Positions 6,799 through 60,276 of a DNA stretch of 64,000 bases are shown piece after piece (position 1 is the stretch's first letter; the number at the start of each line of letters is the position of its first letter). The notes below the pieces were generated by a model. The model was not told where the DNA came from. It saw only the letters and a program-made list of their open reading frames with translations, and ran no database searches. The stretch is from Lytechinus pictus. Taxonomy: Eukaryota. The translations under genes and the position numbers were made by a program. The stretch lies in NCBI RefSeq assembly GCF_037042905.1, contig NC_087250.1, positions 9,798,001-9,862,000 of the forward strand, in the 5' to 3' direction.

Positions 6799-7430
6799 AA
6801 CTTATATATTTTTTCTTGCCATCCAGGCTGAAAGCTTGCTCATTGAAAATAAGGAGCGCGCAATTAAAACCAAACCATTCAATTTTTGGCCTCTCGTAGT
6901 TTTAACACTGGCTTAGACTATACTATAACTTACACCTTACTTCAGAATACCGTCCAACCTTATATATTTTTTCTTGCCATCCAGGCTGAAAGCTGGCTCA
7001 TTAAACATAAGGAGCGCGCAATTAAAACCAAACCATTCAATTTTTGGCCTCTCGTAGTTTTAACACTGGCTTAGACTATTCTATAACTTACACCCTACTT
7101 CGGAATACCGTCCAACCTTATATATTTTTCTTGCCATCCAGGCTGGAGGCTGGCTCATTAAACATAAGGAGAGCACAATTAAAACCAAACCATTTAATTT
7201 TTGGCCTCTCATAGTTTTAACACTGGCTTAGACTATACTATAACTTACACCTTACTTCAGAATACCGTCCAACCTTATATATTTTTCCTTGCCATCTAGG
7301 CTGGAGACTGGCTCATTAAACATAAGGAGCGCGCAATTAAAACCAAACCATTCAATTGTTGGCCTCTCATAGTTTTAACACTGGCTTAGACTATACTATA
7401 ACTTACACCCTACTTCGGAATACCGTCCAA
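6799..7430 (+). repeat. ~157-bp minisatellite, 4 copies (5 copies at 37172-37960)
   Basis: Unit AACCTTATATATTTTTCTTGCCATCCAGGCTG...CTTCGGAATACCGTCC repeated head to tail. Confidence 0.95.
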
Positions 7431-8294
7431 TAAGTTCTACGTAGGTTGAAAGTTTGGATCCGTCCCCGTCGATGGAAGTTGAGTCTGTAATAAGCAGCCG
7501 AAACGATGGCATATTTTATTGTTGGCTTCAACGATCTCAAACAGACTATACTTAAATAACAACGTGTCTTCCATCACAACACCTCGTACGTATTCAATAA
7601 ATGAATAATATTTTGACAACTGTAACTGTTTATGTTGATTCATATATTCAATAAATATTGGAAGAAAAAAAAAATTGCCTAAAATAACATCAAACTTTTT
7701 CTTTTTAATGATCAAACATAACAATGGTTTATAGTATTTTTACAGTCCATATCAATAAACATTTTTGAAGAACTGTAATATTACATTTCTAATGCTATGG
7801 TTACAGCACGTTGTTCGTGTCTTTGCACGAACTTATCTCACAACCTAAACTAATTAATGTTTATGATAATCAATAATTGTGAAAAATATATATTATAGAT
7901 TCACGTATTGGCTCAATACAGTCATAACAATAAACAGCCCAAAGTTAATGTTTTGTTTTTTTTTGCTTTGCCTTTTTTTGCCTCTGAATATGATTGATCT
8001 GATCATAACAAATTTGAGTAACTTTGAATAAACATTTGTTTGGAAAAAAAACATTTACTTTCGGATTTATTTTTTTCACTACATATATGCAGTAAATATA
8101 TATATATATGACCTAGATGGTGCAAACTGAAATATTGTTTTCTGTGGATCATTGTAATGCCGGGAGTGGCAGAATGGTGCAGGATTCAACTCTGAACATG
8201 GTATTTTCATGAATCAGAAGAGTGAATGGAGACATTTAGTCTAGTCTTACTTTCACTGTGATAAAAAACAATTTTTATGTTTTACATGTTATCA

Positions 8295-13938: not shown

Positions 13939-14222
13939 GGAGCGTCGTGGCACAGTGGATTAGTCTCCGGACTTTGAAACAGAGGGTCTTGGGTTCAAAT
14001 CCCAGCCATGGCGTAATTTCCTTCAGCAAGGAATTCATCCACAGTGTGCTGCACTCGACCAAGGTGAGGTAAATGGGTACCGGCAGGAAGTAATTCCTCA
14101 GAAAGCTGTGTGCACCTGCTTAGCCGGGTAATAATGGTAGCAGGGCCTGCTGGGAGAACAGTTTTCGGAACTGAAGTGGCTACCCTGGGTAAAAATACCG
14201 TTATTATTATTATTATTATTAT
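13939..14222 (+). mobile_element. tRNA-derived SINE, full length (unit-2 copy 46419-46702)
   Basis: Head GGAGCGTCGTGGCACAGTGG (A-box)...GGTTCAAATCCC (B-box), CORE-like body CCTTCAGCAAGG...AAATGGGTACC, (TTA)n tail. Confidence 0.85.
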
Positions 14223-14598
14223 CATACAGATCGAGCTTGTCTTGGTGGATACATATTGTAATCCTACCGAGTCTGGCCCGAATGCCTCTGGAAAGCAGAC
14301 AGCAAAAAAAAAAAAAACCAAGCATTTTATTTCAGAGACTCAAGGATGTAGGGAAGGGCAAGGGCAATATCACAGAATATTAACACAGTGACCAAACAAA
14401 ATCAATTCAATTCTTTATTCCATTTCCATTCAAAACACAATACAAAGAAATATACATCAGATACAATATTAGAGATGAGCATCCTTACTTCGTAAACAAA
14501 AAAAATCACAATGTCTTCCCTTTGAAGTAAATATAAAACAATAATAATGTTTGTAACTAATCATTTATATTGGGATTTATTCATTGTTTAGTCCATAC

Positions 14599-14847: not shown

Positions 14848-14940
14848 ACCGGTGCGTTGTTACGTACACCTGGAATCCAAGCAACATGGGCATGATGGGG
14901 AAGCTACGAACTTAAGCAGAGGTTCAAGGTTCGAGCCCTG
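14848..14940 (+). mobile_element. Decayed copy of the 7SL-like head (also 47326-47418)
   Basis: ACCGGTGCGTTGTTACGTACACCTGGAATCCAAGC...TGGGGAAGCTACGAACTTAAGCAGAGGTTC..GGTTCGAGCCCTG aligns by eye with 39435-39510. Confidence 0.6.
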
Positions 14941-15669
14941 CGTTACTGATTAATCGTACGCTTGATTTTTACTATGGATTGTACATCGTATTCAATGCAA
15001 TACTTAATAACATAATAATTATATACAATTGTTATACAATAATGGCTTAGCCAGTATATACATACGCAATGGCGGTCATAAAGATACATGATATATAAAA
15101 TAACCAATGTTACATAGTAATAATGAAAACATATAAAAGTCATTGTTGCTTTTGTCTGTAATCTGATTGCGCCACACCAGTCGAGCCAGTGCATACAGGG
15201 TGCACCTTGGGGGCGTTTGCCCCCCCCCCCTCCAAAAAAAAAACGCTTTCACCACCAAGACAAAAAAGAGATAAAATGTAAGGAAATAAAACAGAGATGG
15301 GTGAAATGTATGTATACTATCATTTTCTGAATATTAAGTCAAAATCTATCACTAGATTCGATTTTTGTAACAAAAAATATCAAAAGTTTTGCTCGCTCTC
15401 TTCGCTCACTCGCAACATTCTATTGATTTGTTTTCCCGGTACGCCATATCTGGCACCTCAGTTCCTTTGGCTCATCAAACCACTGAGTCGAGCTGAGTGA
15501 TTTGTTGAAAATAACATTATCTCCTTACGTTTTGTGCCATGAATATTCATGAGGCGTACTGACTAAATAAGCCCCATGATATCGTAATTTAATATGTCAA
15601 TCGCGTCGTAACCGAATTGAAGCCATTTTAGTCTTTCCCCGGATGAATAGCATTTCGGACTTTTCGCAA

Positions 15670-22211: not shown

Positions 22212-22722
22212 CCTGTAGTAGAGAACGACGATGTAAAACTTTTATGGGATTTTAATATCCAGACAGACAAGGTCATTGAAGCTAGACGACCAGACATCGT
22301 TCTCTTAAAGAAGAAGGAAAAGGAATGTCTCATCATAGATATTGCGATTCCGGGAGACTGCAGAGCTTGGCGTAAAGAGGAGGAAAAGATACAGAAGTAT
22401 AACGATCTGGCATGGGAGCTGAGAAGGATATGGAAGGTGAAGACGAAGGTGGTACCAATAGTCATCGGAGCCTTAGGAACAGTGACAACAAGACACAGAA
22501 GCTGTCTGGCTGTTCTAGGAGTCGAGGTGTCCTTTGAAACGATACAGAAGGCAAGCTTGCTTGGAACAGCTCATATCTTACGGAAGGTCTTGAATTAGAA
22601 AGAGAAGTGAACAATGAGAAGAGGACCCATTTGATAGAATATAGAACAATAACCCTAGATTTCTGGAAGAAGTCCGGTTGCTGTTTAATATACCAACATA
22701 ACATCAAGTTGTGGACAATGGA

Positions 22723-22778
<56 letters not shown>

Positions 22779-25700
22779 GAAATTATGGTCAAATAAAGAA
22801 AAGGAAAATCTTATGACTTGCTTCTACTTTGCGACTGATGTATCTCATAAAACTAGACATTACAGGAAGATAATGAGAGAAACGTGGCTTGAAAATAATG
22901 GTGATCCATCCGTTGGAGAGCAAGCTCTGGCAGACATGAAACAAAATATCCTTCGTACTCAATATTTCAGCGAGATTGAATTAGAGAGAATAAAACAAAA
23001 GGCACATATACTTTGTAGAAAAATTGATAATGCCGGTAATGACGAAACCAGCGACGATCATGGGGATGGTGATGACAAAAATGCCGGTCCTGACAATGCC
23101 AACGATGGCCATAGATATGCTGATGACAAGAATGCCGTCGATGGCGATGCCAACGGCGACCATGGTAATAAAGATGACAACGAAAACCATGATGGTGATG
23201 ACAATAATGTCGGTGTTGATGATTTCAACGATGGCCATGATGATGCTGACAACAATGATACCGGTGATGACGATACCAATGATGATCTCGGTGATACTGA
23301 AGTCAATAATGCTGGCAAGCCTAATGACGATGCCAACGACGACCATGCTGAAGCTAATAACGATGAAGCAGATAATGACAATGCTGCTATAAACGATAAC
23401 CATGGCGATGTTGTGAACAATGACACAGCTGATGATGACTATGATGCCGATATTGATGGTGAGAATGTGTATCATAAAGGCAGGAACGAAGGAGGCCAAC
23501 CAAATAAAGACGGGAGAGTAGAAACGTGTGACAAGAGATTATCAAGACATCCACCCAAGGCCAATGATACGACATGGCCAGCCAATTATAATGAAAATTC
23601 GAAGATCACAGATACACAATCGCTACACAGCAAAGTGAGGAGGAAAAGAGAAAAGAAATTATGGTCAAATAAAGAGAAGGAAAATCTTATGACTTGCTTC
23701 TACTTTGCGACTGATGTATCTCATAAAACTAGACATTACAGGAAGAGAATGAGAGAAACGTGGCTTGAAAATAATGGTGATCCATCCGTTGGAGAGCAAG
23801 CTCTGGCAGACATGAAACAAAGTATCCTTCGTACTCAATATTTCAGCGAGATTGAATTAGAGAGAATAAAGGAAAATGCCCAAAGTCTTTGTAGAGAACG
23901 AAAGCGTAATGCAACAAAGAATCAAGATGACAGGGGAAAACGAATAACAGATAAAGTAGACAAATTGCACGACACTAACAATGATAGAGAGAGATCGGGA
24001 AAAGGAGAAAACTCGGTAATCACCAACACTGAGAAGGTGAGAAATTCTATCCATGATGAAGGAAGTACAGTTTCTGGAAATACAGTGAATATATTTCTTG
24101 ACGAGGGGATTATATTCAACAATCAACAGGATGTTCGGACGCAGAGTGATAGGGGCTTACGAGATGGAGAACACAACCAAAGAATATCACAGGAACAACG
24201 TATGAATCGTCTTGATATGGACAGTGCTCAGAAGAAAAGAAAGAAAGATGACTACATCGCTCAATTTGGGGCGTGTTCCTTGTCTCTTCTACAAAAACTA
24301 GATGAAATCGAAACGGTAGACACACATATTGAGGCCGAATACCAAAGAGGAGCACATTTCTTTCAGTACTGTGACACATCTGACAACAAGCCCGCTGGTG
24401 GAGAGGGAAAGGGATCAACGATGAACAGAAGAAAAAACAGCTCTTATAAGACTGGATTCTCTTCACATGTAGACATACACCAACACTTGCAACAACCTAA
24501 AGTGAAATCTCGTACTCTTCGGGTTACAGCAATAGAAAAGGCTAAGAAAAGACAAGAAATTACTGAGACTGAACATGGGGACGATGTTGCCCATTTTCTA
24601 TGCGGTGGAGAGCCTCGCATTCAACAAGATAAAGAATGTGAAAGGAACGTATCGGGTAATATCAAATCATCTGTACCCGAGAGAGATGCGATTGTATCAC
24701 AAGACTCGACAAATGAAGACAGAGATTCCGATCAACGGCTGTTATCAGCACTGAGGAGCAACTTTGAATATGTGAAGGGAATATCAATATCAGATAGACC
24801 CCAAATTCCCAAGATCGACACAAGGTGCTGTACTACTAGGAGCGTGATCGACAAAGTAGATAAAATGCTTGAAAAGGTGCAATCTAGTCCTTCCAGTTTG
24901 TTGGAGATAAACTGTCTTATCTGGGCAGGAGCAAAAACTGTAACAGAACATATGGGACTCAAGCTTCATTCATCAAACCACTCTACCAATCATAAGAAGA
25001 AGGCTCCTGAATGGAAGAAAAGGCTACAAACCAAGATAGCAGAACTACATAAAGACGTGGCTCAACTCGGAGAAGTAGATAAGGGAAACATAAAATCCAA
25101 TCGGATGAAGAGCAATGCCAAAAGACTTCAGAAGAAATATCGCATTGACGATAAGACCCGTACTAGGACAACTGTTATAGAAACGCTCAAAATGAAGATA
25201 AATGCTCTCAAACACCGTGTTAAGAGATACACAAAGAGTAACAATTTCAAACGGCAGAATAAACTCTTCCATGGAAACAGAAAGAAATTCTTTCGTGAGC
25301 TGGATTCAAAGATGACTGAGACGAAAGATGTTCCATCGGCAGATGATATGAAGAACTACTGGAAAGAACTTTGGGATAATGATATCACTCACGAAGAAAC
25401 TCCCTGGATTCAGTCGGAAGCAGACAAATGGTCCAATGTGCCAGCGCAGCAGCTAGTAGACCTGACCTTACCTGAACTACAAAACTACAAAATACTAATC
25501 TACTGAAAATCATCAATGACATTATCAGAGGGAACAGGACTATTGAGAAATGGCTGCCAATTGGAAGGACCTATCTACTGTACAAAGGCAAAGACCCAAA
25601 ACAACCTAAGAACTATCGTCCAATCACTTGCCTTAATACTATGTATAAGCTGCTGACATCAACGCTTGCCATGCACATCGAACGACACATCGATGATCAT

Positions 25701-28700
25701 GACATAATGGAGGTCACTCAGAAAGGTTGTCGAAAAGGAAAGAAGGGTTGTAAAGATCACCTAATGACAAACAAAGCAATAATCGGTAATGCTCGCCAAA
25801 GACAGACCAATCTATCCATGGCTTGGATAGACTACAGGAAGGCATTTGACAGCGTACCACATAGTTGGATCATCAAAGTTCTAGAGATGTATCACATCAA
25901 TCCACAAATAGTCAAGTGCATATCAGCAGGCATGAAACAATGGAGCACTACTCTTTCGCTTACGATAGGCACCCGTTCGATGACAGTGGAGGGGGTCCGA
26001 ATCAAGAGAGGAATATTTCAAGGAGATTCCTTATCTCCTCTTTTATTCTGCTTAGCTCTCAATCCAGTATGCTCTCTCTTACACGCTACGAGTTATGGCT
26101 ACAGATACAAAGGGCAAGATGTATCTACGACAATAAACCATCTGATATATATGGATGATATCAAACTCTTTGCAAAAAATGACGATGAACTTCACAAGAT
26201 GATAGCAGTAGTTCAACATTTCAGCGATGACATCAAGATGTCGTTTGGTATAGACAAGTGTGCCAAAGTTACACTTGTACGAGGAAGGAGGGTAAATACA
26301 GGCGACATGTTTGTGCAAGATGAGGAAACATCAATCAAGGAACTGACTAATGATTCGACATATAAATATCTAGGCATAGCTGAGAACGATGTCATTAGCC
26401 ATAACACAATGAAGGAGAAGGCAACATCAGAATACAAAAGAAGACTCGGGCTGATCCTTAAATCCGAACTGAATGCCAAAAATAAGATTGAAGCGATCAA
26501 CACTCTAGCCATTCCTGTGCTTAGATACAGTTTTGGTATTGTTAACTGGAGACTAGCTGATATATGTGGCCTAGATATTATGACCAGAAAGCAATTAACG
26601 ATGCACAGATTACATCACCCAAAGGCCGCAATCGAAAGGTTGTACCTTCCCCGTGATCTTGGAGGAAGAGGTCTACAACAAATTGAGATGGTCTGGAATA
26701 TGGAAGCAACGAACCTCGCCAACTACCTATCCAATCCACCTGATATACTGACGAGTATATCCCTCGATTATGATAAATGTCAAGCAATATACTCCATTAA
26801 CAAGCAAGCATCTATCTTATTGGCACAACATCGACTGACACTACCCTACGGTGAAAAAGAGAAGGCAAGACTTAAATGCTCCTTTCACAAGAAACTTCAA
26901 GAGCAACTTAAATCCAAGCGACTTCATGGCCACCATGAAAAACAGATGCATCGGGAGTTCGTAGACCAGAAAGACACACATCAATGGCTTAAGTCGGCGG
27001 GACTAAGAGGTGAAACTGAAGGGTTCGTCTATGCTATTCAGGACCAGGTGGTGAGGACCCGTGCCTACGAAAAATCTATCCTCAGAAGAGACACAGACGA
27101 CACTTGCAGGATGTGTGGAAAAGAGACCGAAACAATCATGCATTTGGTATCAGCATGTTCGACTCTTGCTGGAACTGAGTACATCACAAGACATGACAAT
27201 ATTGCCAAAGTTATCCATTGGCAACTACTGAAGGATCGCGGTAAAATGACTTGTGATCACGCTTGGGAACATCAGCCACAAACGATCACCACGATCAATA
27301 ACAGCACCATATATTGGAACTGTGGCATACTAACGGATAGAACCATCAACTGCAACAAGCCGGACATCATCGTCAGAGACAACAACGTAGTAAATATCAT
27401 TGAGGTCTCTGTTCCCCATGATATCAACATTGCTGTAAAGGAAAGAGACAAACGGCTCAAGTATCAAGACCTAAGGATTGAGATCGAGAGGATGTGGAAC
27501 GTGAAAGCAGAGGTCACACCAGTCATCATTGGTCACTCAGGAATGGTGAAGAAGGGAATGGAAGCCTGCATAACCAAGATCTCTCCTCACCTTCGGATGT
27601 ACGACATTCAGAAGGCAGCTATCTTGGGTACAACCAGATTGATAAGAAAGACTCTCGGACATTAGTAGTGTAAAGTTCCTAGTTGCACTTGAAATTACTT
27701 GGTGCTTTTTGTTAGAGCAAAGTTATTCAAGAAAAAAATACGGACTTGATCCTGTTTAGAGGAATAATAATAATAAACAGTTCTTGTATAGCGCATATCA
27801 CGATTATGAATAATGTCTCTATGCGCTTCCAAAGGACTTGGATATTATTACCCCAGCTGTAGCTTGGCAGCCGTAATTACTAAGATTACAGCGCACACGC
27901 ATTTCAAGGAATAAATTCCTGCCAGGTATCCATTCACCTCACCTGGGTTGAGTGCAGCACAATGTGGATAAATTTCTTGCCGAAGGAAATTACGCCATGG
28001 CTGGGATTCGAACCCACAACCCTCTGTTTCAAAGTCCGGAGACTAATCCACTGGGCCACAACGCTCCACTAATTGTATAAAACCTATGGGGAAAATGAGA
28101 GGGGATTTTGGAGGGGTTTGAAGAGGGCTCAATGGTGGCGCATGGAAATAATTCCACGTTATATTACCAAGAAACCTCTGAAATATATTCATCTCAAATT
28201 TAAGGGGAATAAATTGAATGAAACAAATTCAAAATGTAAAATCGTCTATTCCTTCAGCCCTTCTTCATATCTCTCATATATTTTGTACACAACCATCTCG
28301 CGATACGCAAAGGTAAAAACAGGTCGTTATTTACTCAACGCTGTAGGGCGCTCTTCCCGAGCGTTTCCAGGGGGGTGAAACTCCGCTTCTGCATCCGGTC
28401 AGAATTGGGAAAAATTTTAGAGGGTCAAAAGTGGACACTGCTCCCATTTTTCAAGTACAAGCCTAGAGACACCGCCACTGTATTGGTACACCAGCGAAAT
28501 GGAGGCGTGGTCATGAAACGTCCTTCATGCATAGCGTAAATTAGCATTTTGTCACTAATTAGAATAATGTGCGACCTGATTGAATATCGTTGGTGTCGCT
28601 TTAGCTCGAGCTGCCTTTTAGCGCTCATGCATTCAAGGAATTAATCCTGCCGGGTACCCATTCACCTCATCTGTGTTGAGTGCAGCACAATGTGGATAAA

Positions 28701-37100: not shown

Positions 37101-38631
37101 TGGCACAAGTCTCTAGGAAAAAAGTATTTGGCAGACTAGTTAATTAGAATATAAAAATGTGTAAAAATAGTAACTTATATATTTTTTCTTGCCATCCAGG
37201 CTGAAAGCTTGCTCATTGAAAATAAGGAGCGCGCAATTAAAACCAAACCATTCAATTTTTGGCCTCTCGTAGTTTTAACACTGGCTTAGACTATTCTATA
37301 ACTTACACCCTACTTCGGAATACCGTCCAACCTTATATATTTTTCTTGCCATCCAGGCTGGAGGCTGGCTCATTAAACATAAGGAGTGCGCAATTAAAAC
37401 CAAACCATTCAATTTTTGGCCTCTCGTAGTTTTAACACTGGCTTAGACTATACTATAACTTACACCTTACTTCAGAATACCGTCCAACCTTATATATTTT
37501 TTCTTGCCATCCAGGCTGAAAGCTGGCTCATTAAACATAAGGAGCGCGCAATTAAAACCAAACCATTCAATTTTTGGCCTCTCGTAGTTTTAACACTGGC
37601 TTAGACTATTCTATAACTTACACCCTACTTCGGAATACCGTCCAACCTTATATATTTTTCTTGCCATCCAGGCTGGAGGCTGGCTCATTAAACATAAGGA
37701 ACGCACAATTAAAACCAAACCATTTAATTTTTGGCCTCTCATAGTTTTAACACTGGCTTAGACTATACTATAACTTACACCTTACTTCAGAATACCGTCC
37801 AACCTTATATATTTTTCCTTGCCATCTAGGCTGGAGACTGGCTCATTAAACATAAGGAGCGCGCAATTAAAACCAAACCATTCAATTGTTGGCCTCTCAT
37901 AGTTTTAACACTGGCTTAGACTATACTATAACTTACACCCTACTTCGGAATACCGTCCAATAAGTTCTACGTAGGTTGAAAGTTTGGATCCGTCCCCGTC
38001 GATGGAAGTTGAGTCTGTAATAAGCAGCCGAAACGATGGCATATTTTATTGTTGGCTTCAACGATCTCAAACAGACTATACTTAAATAACAACGTGTCTT
38101 CCATCACAACACCTCGTACGTATTCAATAAATGAATAATATTTTGACAACTGTAACTGTTTATGTTGATTCATATATTCAATAAATATTGGAAGAAAAAA
38201 AAAATTGCCTAAAATAACATCAAACTTTTTCTTTTTAATGATCAAACATAACAATGGTTTATAGTATTTTTACAGTCCATATCAATAAACATTTTTGAAG
38301 AACTGTAATATTACATTTCTAATGCTATGGTTACAGCACGTTGTTCGTGTCTTTGCACGAACTTATCTCACAACCTAAACTAATTAATGTTTATGATAAT
38401 CAATAATTGTGAGAAATATATATTATAGATTCACGTATTGGCTCAATACAGTCATAACAATAAACAGCCCAAAGTTAATGTTTTGTTTTTTTTTGCTTTG
38501 CCTTTTTTTGCCTCTGAATATGATTGATCTGATCATAACAAATTTGAGTAACTTTGAATAAACATTTGTTTGGAAAAAAAAACATTTACTTTCGGATTTA
38601 TTTTTTTCACTACATATATGCAGTATATATA

Positions 38632-40594
38632 CAGTGCGTCCCAAAAAAAACTATACACTTTTGAAATGGCTGCCAAATAAAAAAATGTACCACTTTGGGG
38701 GAAAAGACTTATAGATATGGAAAGCCTATAAAGTCAACTTTCAAATGACACCAAAAAGTTGGAAAACTATTCATGCTTGAGCGAGCACTGCCCACTGAAA
38801 CAAAGGGTATGAAAATTAGGGTGGGCTGGAATTAGCCTTCCAATTTCTTTCAGTTTTTTTTGTTTGGTACTTGCAAAGTTGATGGTTATTTGGTGAATTA
38901 AAGATCAGTTGTGATCAGTTTGTTGTTTGTGAAAATTTAATGGTTATTAAATTGAAATTTAATGCATGAGTGATCATGAATTGGGTGCAGCATTTTGTCT
39001 TATCATGTGGGTCTCAACAATGTGTTCACGACAGTCAGGAGAAGAGGGGGTAATATGACTTAGGTAGGTGAAGTACGTTGATGGGATAAAGGTCAACAGA
39101 ACATTTAGCAACCCCTCTCTCAATCTCACCCCCCCCCCCGCTTATCTCCTCCTGAGAGACTAAGCTCAGCTAAAGTAGGATGGGCAGGAATTAGCCTTAC
39201 AGTTTTTTTGAGTGGTTAGTCCTTTGGAACTTGTTAAGCTAAATTAATGAGAGAGATAAGTTTTGGTTTCTTAGGCAAATTTCATGAGTTACTAAATTGA
39301 AATTTAATGCATGAGTGAACAGGAATTGTAATTTTATTGTTGCATATTCATCTTGTGAACCTCAGAAGTGTGTTCGTGAGAGTCAGAGTAATGTGATGGT
39401 ACCCGTTACAAGCAAGAGGGCGAGATATGCTAAGACTGGGCGTTGTGGCGTGCGCCTGTAATCCAAGCTATGTGGGGAAGTTACAAATTGATGCAGAGGT
39501 TCGAGCCCTGGTCACGTCTTTCGGATGGTGACGTTAAAGGTCGGTCCCAGACGTAAATAATCATTTCTGATTGATACACGTCTGACAAAACTCAAATACA
39601 CACTTGGTTAAAAGGGCATTCCTCTTCTTTTTTTTCCTTTTACAAATTGAAAGTCATATGTACCCTCCCCTCTCCACCTCCATTTCCCAGCCCCCAGCCC
39701 CCCCCCCTCTCTCTGTCTCACTTCCTGCATCATTTGTAGCCTATTCAAAACTTAACTGCCAAGTGACCGGTGGCTGATGGTCAGTTTTTTTTTTCAATGA
39801 TTACCAAGAAATTTAATGATTATGATGATTAATGAAATAATTAATTGAAAAAAAACTGAATGTTTGATTGATCACATTGCACATTGAATAAGTTGATTTA
39901 CTGATAAATTGTTGATTAAATGATTGATAGGAAAAAGTTGATGTCCCAATTCAGAATTAATCATTAAATCAACATTCTGCTCTGGACTTCACGCGTACAT
40001 GACAATAGCCATCAGTCTCTCAACAGGAGGGAGGGCGGGAGAGAGGGAGGGGGCGGGGGCTGAATGTTCTGTTGACCCTTATTCCATCAACCTACTTCTC
40101 TGACTTAAGTCCTATCTCACCCCCTATTCTCCCGACGCCCATGAACACATTGCTGAGATCCACATGATAAATTTGAAATGCTGCCCAAAACGAGATCCAA
40201 ATGATAAAGTTTAAATGCTCCCCAAAAAGTGTAACTTGTGTTCACTCATGCATTAAAGTTCAATTTAATAATTTATAAAATTTGCTTAAGCAACCAAAAC
40301 TGGTCATGGTTGATCATTAATTTATCACATCGCCCTTAACTTTGCAAGTTCGAAAGGATTTGCCTCTCAAAAACTTACATAAATCGGAAGGCTAATTCCA
40401 GCCCACCCTAATTTTCATACCCTTTGTTTCAGTGGGCAGTGCTCGCTCAAGCATGAATAGTTTTCCAACTTTTTGGTGTCATTTGAAAGTTGACTTTATT
40501 GGCTTTCCATATATGTAAGTCCTTTTCCCCAAAGTGCTACATTTTTTATTTGGCAGCCATTTCAAAAGTGTATAGTTTTTTTTGGGACGCACTG
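38632..40594. mobile_element. Non-autonomous Tc1/mariner-like foldback element, present only in unit 2
   Basis: TA-CAGTGCGTCCCAAAA...TTTTGGGACGCACTG-TA, with ~210-bp near-perfect TIRs plus longer imperfect arms. Empty (TA)n site at ~8093-8109 in unit 1. Confidence 0.9.
39434..39603 (+). mobile_element. Putative 7SL-RNA-derived SINE (Alu-domain-like head, B-box, Deu/Nin-like body)
   Basis: GACTGGGCGTTGTGGCGTGCGCCTGTAATCCAAGCTA resembles the SRP RNA 5' end. B-box GGTTCGAGCCC at 39498. CGTCTTTCGGATGGTGACGTTAAAGGTCGGTCCC follows. Decayed copies at 14848-14940 and 47326-47418. Confidence 0.65.
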
Positions 40595-47000: not shown

Positions 47001-48476
47001 TGAAGTAAATAGAAAACAATAATAATGTTTGTAACTAATCATTTATATTGGGATTTATTCATTGTTTAGTCCATACCAGGGCTCCATAACACAAAGGTTT
47101 GAACTCAATCGCTAAATACCAATGACCAATCAAGATCTTCGTTGCACGCGCACTCTGTTTAAAATACTGACCGGGAACGTTCGGTGCGGTTCTTTCATAC
47201 ATGCAATTCATCGGAAGCCTTTGTGTTACGGAGCCCTGAACGTATTAATCTTGACTCAATGCAATGTCAAAACCTTAATTTGCACCTGCCCCAAATTTAG
47301 TGCCGCCCTGTTTCCATGGCAATGTACCGGTGCGTTGTTAAGTACACCTGGAATCCAAGCAACATGGGCATGATGGGGAAGCTACGAACTTAAGCAGAGG
47401 TTCAAGGTTCGAGCCCTGCGTTACTGATTAATCGTACGCTTGATTTTTATTATGGATTGTACATCGTATTCAATGCAATACTTAATAACATAATAATTAT
47501 ATACAATTGTTATACAATAATGGCTTAGCCAGTATATACATACGCAATGGCGGTCATAAAGATACATGATATATAAAATAACCAATGTTACATAGTAATA
47601 ATGAAAACATATAAAAGTCATTGTTGCTTTTGTCTGTAATCTGATTGCGCCACACCAGTCGAGCCAGTGCATACAGGGTGCACCTTGGGGGCGTTTGCCC
47701 CCCCCCCCCCTCCAAAAAAAACACGCTTTCACCACCAAGACAAAAAAGAGATAAAATGTAAGGAAATAAAACAGAGATGGGTGAAATGTATGTATACTAT
47801 CATTTTCTGAATATTAAGTCAAAATCTATCACTAGATTCGATTTTTGTAACAAAAAATATCAAAAGTTTTGCTCGCTCTCTTCGCTCACTCGCAACATTC
47901 TATTGATTTGTTTTCCCGGTACGCCATATCTGGCACCTCAGTTCCTTTGGCTCATCAAACCACTGAGTCGAGCTGAGTGATTTGTTGAAAATAACATTAT
48001 CTCCTTACGTTTTGTGCCATGAATATTCATGAGGCGTACTGACTAAATAAGCCCCATGATATCGTAATTTAATATGTCAATCGCGTCGTAACCGAATTGA
48101 AGCCATTTTAGTCTTTCCCCGGATGAATAGCATTTCGGACTTTTCGCAATTATTACGGGGAAACTCTCTACACCGCATCAATCCCTTTGAAATTGCAAGT
48201 CAAACAACAATTGAGAGCAGAGAGGCTTTTGTCGAAAGTTGGTGGACCGGGACAGTATCGAATGTTGGTGGACCGGGACAGTATCGGAATATCTTGACTC
48301 TGGACAACGACATATTTGCAATCGTTCGCCCGGTGCAAATCGTCGGATGATCTGCTGTACCAGTCCACCATCTTTCGACAAAAGCTACTCAGCTCTCCAT
48401 TGTGATTTTAATTGCATTTCCAAAGGAATCAATGCGTTGTAGAGAGTTTCCCCGTAGTAAATGCGAAAAGTCCCTA

Positions 48477-55290: not shown

Positions 55291-58200
55291 TAGAAATTAT
55301 GGTCAAATAAAGAAAAGGAAAATCTTATGACTTGCTTCTACTTTGCGACTGATGTATCTCATAAAACTAGACATTACAGGAACATAATGAGAGAAACGTG
55401 GCTTGAAAATAATGGTGATCCATCCGTTGGAGAGCAAGCTCTGGCAGACATGAAACAAAATATCCTTCGTACTCAATATTTCAGCGAGATTGAATTAGAG
55501 AGAATAAAACAAAAGGCACATATACTTTGTAGAAAAATTGATAATGCCGGTAATGACGAAACCAGCGACGATCATGGGGATGGTGATGACAAAAATGCCG
55601 GTCCTGACAATGCCAACGATGGCCATAGATATGCTGATGACAAGAATGCCGTCGATGGCGATGCCAACGGCGACCATGGTAATGAAGATGACAACGAAAA
55701 CCATGATGGTGATGACAATAATGTCGGTGTTGATGATTTCAACGATGGCCATGATGATGCTGACAACAATGATACCGGTGATGACGATACCAATGATGAT
55801 CTCGGTGATACTGAAGTCAATAATGCTGGCAAGCCTAATGACGATGCCAACGACGACCATGCTGAAGCTAATAACGATGAAGCAGATAATGACAATGCTG
55901 CTATAAACGATAACCATGGCGATGTTGTGAACAATGACACAGCTGATGATGACTATGATGCCGATATTGATGGTGAGAATGTGTATCATAAAGGCAGGAA
56001 CGAAGGAGGCCAACCAAATAAAGACGGGAGAGTAGAAACGTGTGACAAGAGATTATCAAGACATCCACCCAAGGCCAATGATACGACATGGCCAGCCAAT
56101 TATAATGAAAATTCGAAGATCACAGATACACAATCGCTACACAGCAAAGTGAGGAGGAAAAGAGAAAAGAAATTATGGTCAAATAAAGAGAAGGAAAATC
56201 TTATGACTTGCTTCTACTTTGCGACTGATGTATCTCATAAAACTAGACATTACAGGAAGAGAATGAGAGAAACGTGGCTTGAAAATAATGGTGATCCATC
56301 CGTTGGAGAGCAAGCTCTGGCAGACATGAAACAAAGTATCCTTCGTACTCAATATTTCAGCGAGATTGAATTAGAGAGAATAAAGGAAAATGCCCAAAGT
56401 CTTTGTAGAGAACGAAAGCGTAATGCAACAAAGAATCAAGATGACAGGGGAAAACGAATAACAGATAAAGTAGACAAATTGCACGACACTAACAATGATA
56501 GAGAGAGATCGGGAAAAGGAGAAAACTCGGTAATCACCAACACTGAGAAGGTGAGAAATTCTATCCATGATGAAGGAAGTACAGTTTCTGGAAATACAGT
56601 GAATATATTTCTTGACGAGGGGATTATATTCAACAATCAACAGGATGTTCGGACGCAGAGTGATAGGGGCTTACGAGATGGAGAACACAACCAAAGAATA
56701 TCACAGGAACAACGTATGAATCGTCTTGATATGGACAGTGCTCAGAAGAAAAGAAAGAAAGATGACTACATCGCTCAATTTGGGGCGTGTTCCTTGTCTC
56801 TTCTACAAAAACTAGATGAAATCGAAACGGTAGACACACATATTGAGGCCGAATACCAAAGAGGAGCACATTTCTTTCAGTACTGTGACACATCTGACAA
56901 CAAGCCCGCTGGTGGAGAGGGAAAGGGATCAACGATGAACAGAAGAAAAAACAGCTCTTATAAGACTGGATTCTCTTCACATGTAGACATACACCAACAC
57001 TTGCAACAACCTAAAGTGAAATCTCGTACTCTTCGGGTTACAGCAATAGAAAAGGCTAAGAAAAGACAAGAAATTACTGAGACTGAACATGGGGACGATG
57101 TTGCCCATTTTCTATGCGGTGGAGAGCCTCGCATTCAACAAGATAAAGAATGTGAAAGGAACGTATCGGGTAATATCAAATCATCTGTACCCGAGAGAGA
57201 TGCGATTGTATCACAAGACTCGACAAATGAAGACAGAGATTCCGATCAACGGCTGTTATCAGCACTGAGGAGCAACTTTGAATATGTGAAGGGAATATCA
57301 ATATCAGATAGACCCCAAATTCCCAAGATCGACACAAGGTGCTGTACTACTAGGAGCGTGATCGACAAAGTAGATAAAATGCTTGAAAAGGTGCAATCTA
57401 GTCCTTCCAGTTTGTTGGAGATAAACTGTCTTATCTGGGCAGGAGCAAAAACTGTAACAGAACATATGGGACTCAAGCTTCATTCATCAAACCACTCTAC
57501 CAATCATAAGAAGAAGGCTCCTGAATGGAAGAAAAGGCTACAAACCAAGATAGCAGAACTACATAAAGACGTGGCTCAACTCGGAGAAGTAGATAAGGGA
57601 AACATAAAATCCAATCGGATGAAGAGCAATGCCAAAAGACTTCAGAAGAAATATCGCATTGACGATAAGACCCGTACTAGGACAACTGTTATAGAAACGC
57701 TCAAAATGAAGATAAATGCTCTCAAACACCGTGTTAAGAGATACACAAAGAGTAACAATTTCAAACGGCAGAATAAACTCTTCCATGGAAACAGAAAGAA
57801 ATTCTTTCGTGAGCTGGATTCAAAGATGACTGAGACGAAAGATGTTCCATCGGCAGATGATATGAAGAACTACTGGAAAGAACTTTGGGATAATGATATC
57901 ACTCACGAAGAAACTCCCTGGATTCAGTCGGAAGCAGACAAATGGTCCAATGTGCCAGCGCAGCAGCTAGTAGACCTGACCTTACCTGAACTACAAAACT
58001 ACAAAATACTAATCTACTGAAAATCATCAATGACATTATCAGAGGGAACAGGACTATTGAGAAATGGCTGCCAATTGGAAGGACCTATCTACTGTACAAA
58101 GGCAAAGACCCAAAACAACCTAAGAACTATCGTCCAATCACTTGCCTTAATACTATGTATAAGCTGCTGACATCAACGCTTGCCATGCACATCGAACGAC

Positions 58201-60276
58201 ACATCGATGATCATGACATAATGGAGGTCACTCAGAAAGGTTGTCGAAAAGGAAAGAAGGGTTGTAAAGATCACCTAATGACAAACAAAGCAATAATCGG
58301 TAATGCTCGCCAAAGACAGACCAATCTATCCATGGCTTGGATAGACTACAGGAAGGCATTTGACAGCGTACCACATAGTTGGATCATCAAAGTTCTAGAG
58401 ATGTATCACATCAATCCACAAATAGTCAAGTGCATATCAGCAGGCATGAAACAATGGAGCACTACTCTTTCGCTTACGATAGGCACCCGTTCGATGACAG
58501 TGGAGGGGGTCCGAATCAAGAGAGGAATATTTCAAGGAGATTCCTTATCTCCTCTTTTATTCTGCTTAGCTCTCAATCCAGTATGCTCTCTCTTACACGC
58601 TACGAGTTATGGCTACAGATACAAAGGGCAAGATGTATCTACGACAATAAACCATCTGATATATATGGATGATATCAAACTCTTTGCAAAAAATGACGAT
58701 GAACTTCACAAGATGATAGCAGTAGTTAAACATTTCAGCGATGACATCAAGATGTCGTTTGGTATAGACAAGTGTGCCAAAGTTACACTTGTACGAGGAA
58801 GGAGGGTAAATACAGGCGACATGTTTGTGCAAGATGAGGAAACATCAATCAAGGAACTGACTAATGATTCGACATATAAATATCTAGGCATAGCTGAGAA
58901 CGATGTCATTAGCCATAACACAATGAAGGAGAAGGCAACATCAGAATACAAAAGAAGACTCGGGCTGATCCTTAAATCCGAACTGAATGCCAAAAATAAG
59001 ATTGAAGCGATCAACACTCTAGCCATTCCTGTGCTTAGATACAGTTTTGGTATTGTTAACTGGAGACTAGCTGATATATGTGGCCTAGATATTATGACCA
59101 GAAAGCAATTAACGATGCACAGATTACATCACCCAAAGGCCGCAATCGAAAGGTTGTACCTTCCCCGTGATCTTGGAGGAAGAGGTCTACAACAAATTGA
59201 GATGGTCTGGAATATGGAAGCAACGAACCTCGCCAACTACCTATCCAATCCACCTGATATACTGACGAGTATATCCCTCGATTATGATAAATGTCAAGCA
59301 ATATACTCCATTAACAAGCAAGCATCTATCTTATTGGCACAACATCGACTGACACTACCCTACGGTGAAAAAGAGAAGGCAAGACTTAAATGCTCCTTTC
59401 ACAAGAAACTTCAAGAGCAACTTAAATCCAAGCGACTTCATGGCCACCATGAAAAACAGATGCATCGGGAGTTCGTAGACCAGAAAGACACACATCAATG
59501 GCTTAAGTCGGCGGGACTAAGAGGTGAAACTGAAGGGTTCGTCTATGCTATTCAGGACCAGGTGGTGAGGACCCGTGCCTACGAAAAATCTATCCTCAGA
59601 AGAGACACAGACGACACTTGCAGGATGTGTGGAAAAGAGACCGAAACAATCATGCATTTGGTATCAGCATGTTCGACTCTTGCTGGAACTGAGTACATCA
59701 CAAGACATGACAATATTGCCAAAGTTATCCATTGGCAACTACTGAAGGATCGCGGTAAAATGACTTGTGATCACGCTTGGGAACATCAGCCACAAACGAT
59801 CACCACGATCAATAACAGCACCATATATTGGAACTGTGGCATACTAACGGATAGAACCATCAACTGCAACAAGCCGGACATCATCGTCAGAGACAACAAC
59901 GTAGTAAATATCATTGAGGTCTCTGTTCCCCATGATATCAACATTGCTGTAAAGGAAAGAGACAAACGGCTCAAGTATCAAGACCTAAGGATTGAGATCG
60001 AGAGGATGTGGAACGTGAAAGCAGAGGTCACACCAGTCATCATTGGTCACTCAGGAATGGTGAAGAAGGGAATGGAAGCCTGCATAACCAAGATCTCTCC
60101 TCACCTTCGGATGTACGACATTCAGAAGGCAGCTATCTTGGGTACAACCAGATTGATAAGAAAGACTCTCGGACATTAGTAGTGTAAAGTTCCTAGTTGC
60201 ACTTGAAATTACTTGGTGCTTTTTGTTAGAGCAAAGTTATTCAAGAAAAAAATACGGACTTGATCCTGTTTAGAGG
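55291..60276 (+). mobile_element. R4/Dong retrotransposon, unit-2 copy
   Basis: ORFs 55327-58020 and 58155-60179, with the same frameshift and a few substitutions. Confidence 0.92.

Follow-up and report, generated by a model that had tools for sequence, protein, structure and literature searches.

A young short interspersed element with a partial 7SL RNA head and a Deu/Nin-like body in the sea urchin Lytechinus pictus

A stretch of 64,000 nucleotides (nt) from Lytechinus pictus (NCBI RefSeq assembly GCF_037042905.1, contig NC_087250.1, positions 9,798,001 to 9,862,000 of the forward strand), hereafter the window, in whose coordinates all positions are given, hosts at 39435-39603 on the plus strand a complete 169-nt copy of a short interspersed element (SINE) closed by a minimal AC tail. 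The element is a real SINE, in which a partial head derived from 7SL RNA, the signal recognition particle (SRP) RNA, is joined to a Deu/Nin-like body. The copy is found inside a DNA transposon, and its ends are set by empty sites, as all six other copies of this host transposon read gctaag-ac-ttggtt and lack the insert. The insert therefore corresponds to ACTGGGCG...ACAC, and the accompanying target duplication measures 0-2 bp (AC at most). The 5' end had been placed at 39434 by the first-pass annotation, one base too early, as the G found there belongs to the flank. The identification of a complete copy is further sustained by the fit to a consensus of 75 copies and by eight identical places elsewhere in the genome, described below.

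The SINE is a mosaic of six parts. The head (39435-39481, plus strand) spans nt 1-47 and corresponds to the 5' domain of 7SL RNA, in which the Alu-domain helices 2-4 and the region of box A are comprised, as indicated by matches to 7SL genes and to the Rfam family RF00017. It is followed by a 16-nt linker (39482-39497, plus strand), with no significant likeness to 7SL and in which no transfer RNA (tRNA) was found. The motif GGTTCGAGCCC, read directly in the sequence at 39498-39508 (plus strand; nt 64-74 of the element), is of the RNA polymerase III (Pol III) box B type, and fits GGTTCGANNCC, the tRNA-type box B consensus. The 5' block of the Deu/Nin-DC SINE domain extends from 39511 to 39548 (plus strand) and includes CGTCTTTCGGATGGTGACGTTAAAGGTCGGTCCC at 39515-39548; it was assigned by comparing published consensuses by eye. 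A 3' hairpin with stems of 7 and 6 bp, supported by folding against shuffled sequences, occupies 39548-39584 (plus strand). The A-rich tail, ACAAAACTCAAAT(AC)n (39585-39603, plus strand), ends in the window copy with a short ACACAC at 39598-39603; the (AC)n run varies among copies, being in the others 0-18 nt longer (mean 7). The features first listed at this locus, namely a 7SL-like start, a B box, a Deu/Nin block and a short CA-type end, have thus all been found by reading the sequence.

The SINE is dispersed throughout the genome. A 27-mer from the head, searched with up to three mismatches, matched the 811-Mb genome 1450 times (750 forward, 700 reverse), and its reversed control never did; the matches include at least 7 true 7SL genes, and the family is made of about 1,400 copies. 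A 170-nt query returned 1749 first-look candidates in the same assembly. Forty candidates were scored, and 40 of the 41 matches listed are 99-100% identical to the query, the remaining one 93%; among the matches listed, 8 places other than that of the window copy show 100% identity along 165 nt or more. The first 30 exact head matches, all on contig C1, correspond to 27 full SINEs and 3 true 7SL genes. At 24 of 30 fetched loci, copies all begin with (A)ACTGGGCG and close with ...CTCAAATACACAC before a variable (AC)n, and most flanks are unrelated; the six other loci lack an exact 40-mer anchor and were left out of the comparison of ends. Altogether, 103 BLAST segments resolve into 94 distinct places, which host 75 full-length copies, 12 truncated or diverged fragments, 5'-truncated copies among them, and 7 starts of true 7SL genes. 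The dispersal proposed by the first-pass annotation is borne out by these counts, and the presence of copies at many other loci tells that the element is not confined to the host DNA transposon. The element falls within the SINEBase definition (PMC3531059), being 169 nt long (the limit is 1 kb), interspersed, non-tandem and mostly set in unrelated flanks. SINEBase also asks for at least 60% identity over at least 60 nt to tRNA, 5S or 7SL RNA; the first 60 nt agree with the species' own 7SL at 44 of 61 columns (72%), a figure that spans 60 nt, real 7SL homology being limited to about nt 1-47.

Among the 75 full copies, divergence from the 169-nt consensus averages 1.9%, with a median of 1.2% and a maximum of 9.3%, and the SINE is hence a young family. 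Subfamilies differ by the presence of a second GAGGTTC, a duplication of 7 nt, at the B box (26/75 copies, an older subfamily), by a TA deletion at nt 35-36 (17/75) and by a T at nt 131 (12/75); the window copy fits the consensus and carries this T, typical of the youngest subfamily. The junction between 7SL and body is identical in 75/75 copies. Subfamilies with common diagnostic indels denote amplification from master copies already bearing the head. Target duplications of at least 4 bp flank 33/75 copies, and those of at least 5 bp 19/75 copies, against 18% and 7%, respectively, of shuffled flank pairs. An old, 3'-truncated copy, made of the head and a duplicated B box, is found at 14848-14946 (plus strand), where 75 of 99 columns agree with nt 1-88 of the consensus with a duplicated B box (score 46; the shuffle maximum is 19). 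The decayed copy noticed earlier at 14848 is therefore genuine; its companion at 47326-47424 (plus strand; 74/99 columns) is the same copy carried along by a segmental duplication of about 32.5 kb, so that the two are one duplicated locus and not two insertions. A further copy, L042, is strongly diverged. Since old copies exist, the SINE lineage is not new, though its recent burst is.

The 7SL origin of the head is evident from the comparison with the 7SL genes of the same genome. These start with ACCGGGCGTTGTGGCGTGCGCCTGTAATCCAGCTAC, the SINE with ACTGGGCGTTGTGGCGTGCGCCTGTAATCCAAGCTAT, and the first base of the SINE coincides with 7SL position 1. The start of the head is identical to the species' own 7SL genes at 34 of 36 bases, and the whole head (nt 1-47) agrees with each of the seven genes at 40-42 of 47-48 columns. 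In a permissive Rfam scan of 39300-39750, the Metazoa_SRP model (RF00017) matched 39435-39521 with 29.5 bits (E=5.7e-6), model positions 1 to about 47 being aligned to the head with high posterior probability; no tRNA was detected in the SINE region by ARAGORN, nor by Rfam at E<=10 in the same interval. The covariance-model match expected from the first reading has thus been obtained, and the head, which carries bases specific to the 7SL genes of this lineage, can be called 7SL-derived as initially suggested. A search of the whole assembly with RF00017, in which 25 of about 6077 rough candidates were scored, identified 7 full-length 7SL genes at 272-283 bits; the other 18 scored 31.9-34.9 bits, and the three of them that were examined (L038-L040) are all SINE copies. 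In the covariance-model alignment, pairs of helices 2, 3 and 4 are standard in 64-75 of the 75 SINE copies. A U3-A45 pair replaces in the SINE the C3-G pair of six 7SL genes; the seventh gene, L037 on contig C12, also has U3-A45, which points to an L037-like 7SL paralogue as the source of the head. The reading of the change from C3-G to U3-A as compensatory, and as a sign of selection on the SINE, was dropped, as the same pair occurs in that paralogue.

No significant likeness to 7SL has been found past nt 47, the 3' end of 7SL included: the last 70 nt of 7SL aligned to SINE nt 48-169 with a score of 8.0, the shuffle mean being 7.8, and 260 of 500 shuffles did as well. A longer homology was considered, as a permissive alignment appeared colinear to about nt 97, but it failed the tests. 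The best local score past nt 47 (14, versus 9.5 +/- 1.6; 11/500 shuffles as good) came from a non-colinear match, and linker plus box B did not rise above shuffles in a crude test, on which the free-end-gap setting had no effect. The likeness does not span a 7SL gene of about 300 nt, as that of a plain pseudogene would. A 7SL retropseudogene consists of full-length 7SL and poly(A); here likeness stops at about nt 47, and (AC)n takes the place of poly(A). Judged by its sequence, the SINE is neither a 7SL pseudogene nor an Alu-type derivative in which a deletion has joined the 5' and 3' parts of 7SL. The match to the species' own 7SL genes, lineage-specific bases included, supports an origin of the head within this lineage, separate from that of Alu and B1.

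The motifs GCCCTCAATAGGACAATAAA and ATATGTCCTTAATTTCGC are conserved upstream of the 7SL genes and missing from the SINE. Upstream motifs of the types GCCCTC... and ATAT(G)TCCTTA(A/T)TTT are found in all seven genes. Six of the seven (L031-L036) feature also a B-box-like stretch, GGTTCGAGTC[CT], located 25-45 nt past the T-run and often followed by AGGTGT; no tRNA was detected by ARAGORN downstream of the terminators of these six genes. Both the upstream motifs and the downstream B-box-like stretches may serve as Pol III control elements in the 7SL genes of echinoids. Three of the genes (L031, L035 and L036) are arranged in tandem (G000:C10:7.911-7.921 Mb), and a SINE copy ends about 35 bp upstream of the start of each; these copies probably derive from one insertion that was copied along with the gene array.

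Box B GGTTCGANNCC is intact in 64/75 copies, and 71/75 copies are free of TTTT; the box A region does not differ from that of 7SL. These features are compatible with Pol III, by which the SINE is predicted to be transcribed. The block that starts at nt 77 reads GTCACGTCTTTCGGATGGTGACGTTAAAGGTCGGTCCC. Its comparison, made by eye only, involved the Nla_Nin, Lsa_Nin, Pan_3, Lottia_Nin and Tgr_1 consensuses (supplement of PMC4758252) and BivaMD-SINE1, a Meta+Deu SINE (supplement of PMC4824008). The pattern GTCACG-TCTTTCGGATGGTGACGTTAAA...GGTCCC resembles Nla_Nin (about 26 of 33 columns), Pan_3 (24/31), Lsa_Nin, Tgr_1 and BivaMD-SINE1. TCTTTCGGATG, GACG(T/A)TAAA and GGTCCC agree with published consensuses at the same spacing, and GTCACG is common to the SINE, Tgr_1 and BivaMD-SINE1. 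The 3' part of Nin-DC (..GCACGTTAAAGA.CCC..GGCAAAATT) is absent, or shrunk to ACGTAAATAATC. Nin-DC is regarded as a part or variant of the Deu domain (PMC4758252, PMC5786205). The Deu/Nin body that had been announced for this element is thus recognizable in its 5' block, and not in the rest of the domain. Taken alone, the block folds no better than shuffles (z=-0.09). The downstream hairpin (nt 114-150) reaches a minimum free energy (MFE) of -13.0 kcal/mol, versus -7.3 +/- 2.4 for shuffles (z=-2.41; 5/200 as good), and is a candidate recognition structure for the reverse transcriptase (RT) of a partner long interspersed element (LINE).

The transposon hosting the window copy is non-autonomous, about 1.96 kb long (38632-40594, strand not assigned), and is bounded by long terminal inverted repeats (TIRs; CAGTGCGTCCC...), identified by reading the inverted ends, and by TA flanks. 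Its ends read CAGTGCGTCCCAAAAAAAACTATACAC..., and its interior is largely palindromic. The family is very abundant and young, as 1821 first-look candidates were found, the top 40 at 97-100% identity. Most of the window is made of a tandem-like segmental duplication of about 32.5 kb, in which 1630-31485 and 32001-64000 are 99.2-99.5% identical. The transposon is found only in the second duplicate, the paralogous site at about 8097-8100 being free of it. Since the transposon is missing from the first duplicate, and the SINE from 6/6 transposon copies, duplication, transposon and SINE came in this order, and all three events are recent. The duplicates differ also in the copy number of an internal repeat of about 157 bp, around 6801-7430 and 37174-37960. 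A retrotransposon at 22702-27665 (and 55327-60179) features a low-complexity open reading frame (ORF) of 934 amino acids and a 729-amino-acid ORF with an RVT_1 domain (E=1.9e-23). The latter shows 99% identity, along 67% of its length, with a protein that NCBI lists under the name of Lytechinus pictus, in keeping with the invertebrate host assumed in the first-pass annotation. The 3' end of this retrotransposon is AAT-rich, unlike the SINE tail. A different, tRNA-headed SINE, with A and B boxes and a body ending in an ATT-rich run, lies at about 27990-28075 (minus strand), and a similar one at about 13995-14339.

Additional arrangements have been noticed among the copies of the 7SL-headed SINE. 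Three independent copies (L041, L086 and L089) begin at nearly the same internal position, nt 81-83, where the Deu/Nin block starts; this could be a preferred 5'-truncation point, or the start of a headless sub-element. Single units, or head-to-tail pairs about 190 bp apart, lie in one larger repeat context at L039, L040 and L070/L071, and paired matches emerged from the RF00017 search on C2, C4, C7 and C18 as well. The 5' flank, ...tgcatttca, is identical around these singles and pairs, which indicates that a bigger repeat carries one or two SINE units. At L077 (G000:C15, about 7.688 Mb) the SINE tail is split by an element of about 650 bp, with inverted ends made of G/C runs (ccgggggggggg...cccccccccccgg), the target of which, acaaaactc, is duplicated. 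The copies L002, L014, L019 and L089 lie directly beside a repeat that includes gggtctgga(g/a)(g/a)aaagac(t/a)a(c/t)gct; in L089 this repeat is fused to the truncated SINE.

It is very likely that the SINE is a young retroposon in which the 7SL 5' end has been placed on a Deu/Nin-type body; the following mode of spread and of origin is proposed for it. Transcription by Pol III would start at nt 1, driven by the 7SL-derived box A region and by the acquired box B. 7SL genes themselves appear to depend on the conserved upstream motifs; the lack of these in the SINE would explain the need for box B. The transcript would have no internal T4 terminator. The 3' hairpin and the (AC)n tail would be recognized by the RT of a stringent LINE of the CR1/L2-like type, which would copy the SINE RNA into new sites with very short target duplications or none. 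By its 47-nt 7SL domain, the RNA probably also attaches to SRP9/14 and is thereby taken to ribosomes, by analogy with the 46-nt 5' domain of human Alu, which associates with SRP9/14, is necessary for Alu retrotransposition and can promote retrotransposition (PMC12199147). The family was most likely born by fusion of a 7SL 5' end, from a transcript or a gene, to an older Deu-type SINE, by template switching or recombination occurring between the A and B boxes of the latter. This origin is modelled on the hagfish 7SL SINE, a chimera to which an older tRNA SINE contributed (PMC7245038). In the DeuSINEs known from sea urchins, the head is a tRNA one and the partner is CR1 (PMC3747384).

Several data weigh against this reconstruction. 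The Metazoa_SRP match, at 29.5 bits, is well under the gathering score of 70, and an Rfam scan of the whole window at gathering scores gave no match. The U3-A45 pair, being present also in one 7SL gene, provides no independent evidence of selection on the SINE. For the 50-nt head and likewise for the 5' end of genuine 7SL, the MFE fold is no better than shuffles (z=0.13 each), so that the Alu-domain fold is drawn from the covariance-model alignment; the whole SINE similarly folds no better than shuffles (z=-0.21). The match to Deu/Nin domains is a comparison by eye, and the Pol III step is read from sequence features. Words of the SINE occur in DNA sequencing runs of one organism, in runs guessed to be of RNA, in one run of a second organism and, with small shares, in seawater metatranscriptomes; these shares do not count as evidence of expression, of habitat or of occurrence in another species. 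The 75-copy sample is biased towards good matches, having been assembled from best hits or exact-head hits, and no target duplication is detectable in 42 of the 75 copies, that of the window copy measuring only 0-2 bp. No partner LINE endowed with the SINE tail emerged from the window, from the fetched loci (about 290 kb) or from three pattern scans. The RT element at 22702-27665 was rejected as partner for lack of a tail match. Scans excluding the SINE-specific upstream bases gave 46 and 80 matches, and most of those printed were single-base upstream variants; the 22 scan loci examined host mutated, truncated or interrupted SINE copies, except L073, L084 and L087, and no RT frame. Pattern scans for a sister family combining the same body with another head, a tRNA one included, gave 2 and 61 matches, the printed ones of the 61 being mostly one base off the SINE upstream bases; no such family was found, and the chimera has no direct witness.

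Alternative explanations have been weighed. The family may be real but already catalogued, for instance as an unclassified or 'SINE2' echinoid consensus in Repbase or Dfam, in which case only the recognition of the 7SL head would be new. Automated repeat libraries exist for many assemblies. Sea-urchin SINEs, the DeuSINE SINE2-3_SP included, have long been in Repbase (PMC3747384). Against this stand two papers of 2020 and 2026, according to which 7SL SINEs are known only in Euarchontoglires, hagfish and a shrew mole (PMC7245038, PMC13023118), and full-text literature searches, which gave no sea-urchin or other invertebrate 7SL SINE. Previous cataloguing is on the whole rather unlikely.

It is far less plausible that the element does not propagate by itself, and results from repeated, independent chimeric 7SL-SINE retrocopies, or travels as a passenger of larger repeats or segmental duplications. 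In its favour are the single 5' flank common to L039, L040 and L070, which host one or two SINE units, the common 3' flank of L014 and L015, the segmental duplication of the old window copy and the weakness of target duplications; yet unrelated flanks begin right at the element ends in the majority of the 24 anchored loci and in 27 of the 30 exact-head loci, and the empty site is precise. The junction identical in 75/75 copies and the subfamilies with common diagnostic indels speak against it as well.

That the head is an ordinary tRNA-derived one, similar to 7SL by chance or by convergence at the A box, is already contradicted: although some tRNA-derived heads start alike (the Lsa_3 consensus begins with GACGGGCGCTGTGGCG; supplement of PMC4758252) and box B is of the tRNA type, the 34/36 match to the own 7SL runs through GTGCGCCTGTAATCCAGCTA, which is not tRNA-like, ARAGORN found no tRNA, the Rfam matches at E<=10 include Metazoa_SRP but no tRNA, and the three sub-threshold SRP-model matches examined (L038-L040, of 18) are SINE copies. 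Equally hard to credit is a DNA-transposon-type element (a miniature inverted-repeat transposable element), or a piece of the host TIR transposon, in place of a retroposon: the window copy does lie inside a TIR transposon and has a target duplication of only 0-2 bp, but 6/6 other transposon copies lack the SINE, whose ends are not inverted repeats, whose tail is a variable microsatellite and some copies of which are 5'-truncated.

An element of this make-up, a partial 7SL head set on a Deu/Nin-type body, would be of interest in several respects. In primates and rodents, the mobile elements with the greatest success are found among 7SL-derived SINEs. Many SINE families have been described, yet 7SL heads have been reported from only three vertebrate lineages, and no invertebrate 7SL-headed SINE, from sea urchins or otherwise, was found in the searchable full-text literature. 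It is tentatively proposed, at less than even confidence, that the present SINE is the first 7SL-headed one outside vertebrates, and the first with only a 5' domain of about 47 nt; it would mark the independent arrival of an echinoderm, with a non-L1 LINE, at the minimal SRP9/14-binding module of human Alu that was deletion-mapped in 2025. The case would show that the birth of 7SL SINEs is not limited to vertebrates, and that 7SL is able to give only its 5' 47 nt, not the whole Alu domain; it would also bring together a 7SL head, a Deu/Nin body and a partner with a microsatellite tail, probably of CR1/L2 type. As the retained 47 nt coincide with the 46-nt SRP9/14-binding Alu domain, the SINE offers a natural test of the generality of that function. 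If the proposal holds true, docking to ribosomes or SRP9/14 would be a general aid to SINE retrotransposition, and no peculiarity of L1. Sea-urchin embryos are experimentally tractable. In the annotation of echinoid repeats, these about 1,400 loci should not be called 7SL/SRP RNA genes or pseudogenes.

In the papers of 2020 and 2026 mentioned, 7SL-derived SINEs are placed only in Euarchontoglires (supraprimates), hagfish and one shrew mole, and all arose after a central deletion keeping both ends of 7SL (PMC7245038, PMC13023118). The sea-urchin SINE shares one of the traits of SINE1, as its 5' part derives from the 5' end of 7SL RNA. It lacks the 7SL 3' part that follows the central deletion (about 183 nt), and with it a complete Alu domain; box B, derived from 7SL in SINE1 (human positions 76-86), has here the tRNA-type consensus. 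The definition of the family as Alu-like, given by the first-pass annotation, is too strong, as the 7SL 3' part, kept by all 7SL SINEs described, is missing. As in Alu, B1 and FLAM, the head starts from 7SL position 1 and retains the box A region along with the 5' helices of the Alu domain; with the 7SL upstream promoter left behind, a B box inside the element would similarly be needed. Alu and B1 consist solely of 7SL sequence (5' and 3' parts, with the central deletion), and have a poly(A) tail used by L1 (PMC7245038). In contrast, the sea-urchin SINE retains only 7SL nt 1-47, to which a Deu/Nin block is added, along with a hairpin and an (AC)n tail.

SINE1-1_EBu from hagfish (Kojima 2020, PMC7245038) is similarly a young family, in which an independent, lineage-specific 7SL head is set on an older, non-7SL SINE body and tail; its partner is not L1, as is proposed for the sea-urchin SINE too. 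It differs because both 5' and 3' parts of 7SL are kept, body and tail are RTE-derived, and target duplications measure about 17 bp; the sea-urchin SINE has the 5' domain only, a Deu/Nin block, target duplications of 0-10 bp and an invertebrate host. Urop from the gracile shrew mole (Kosushkin et al. 2026, PMC13023118) represents another independent birth of a 7SL SINE, but is dimeric, features the canonical central deletion and depends on L1 and poly(A). Tu-type SINEs of the tree shrew and GarnAlu of the bushbaby are also composites, made of modules derived from 7SL and tRNA SINEs (PMC7245038). These descend from the single SINE1 ancestor of Euarchontoglires and join whole SINE units, whereas in the sea-urchin SINE a 47-nt piece of 7SL supplies only the 5' half of the promoter region.

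With Deu/Nin-DC SINEs, a group to which the sea-urchin DeuSINE SINE2-3_SP, known here by its description only, belongs, the element appears by eye to have in common the block TCTTTCGGATG..GACGTTAAA..GGTCCC. Echinoid DeuSINEs use CR1-type partners (PMC3747384), which fits the hairpin and the microsatellite tail. In those families the head is of tRNA or 5S type and the Deu/Nin domain is longer; the present SINE has a 7SL head, and of the domain only the 5' block is clear, possibly accompanied by a short remnant of the 3' block, ACGTAAATAATC.

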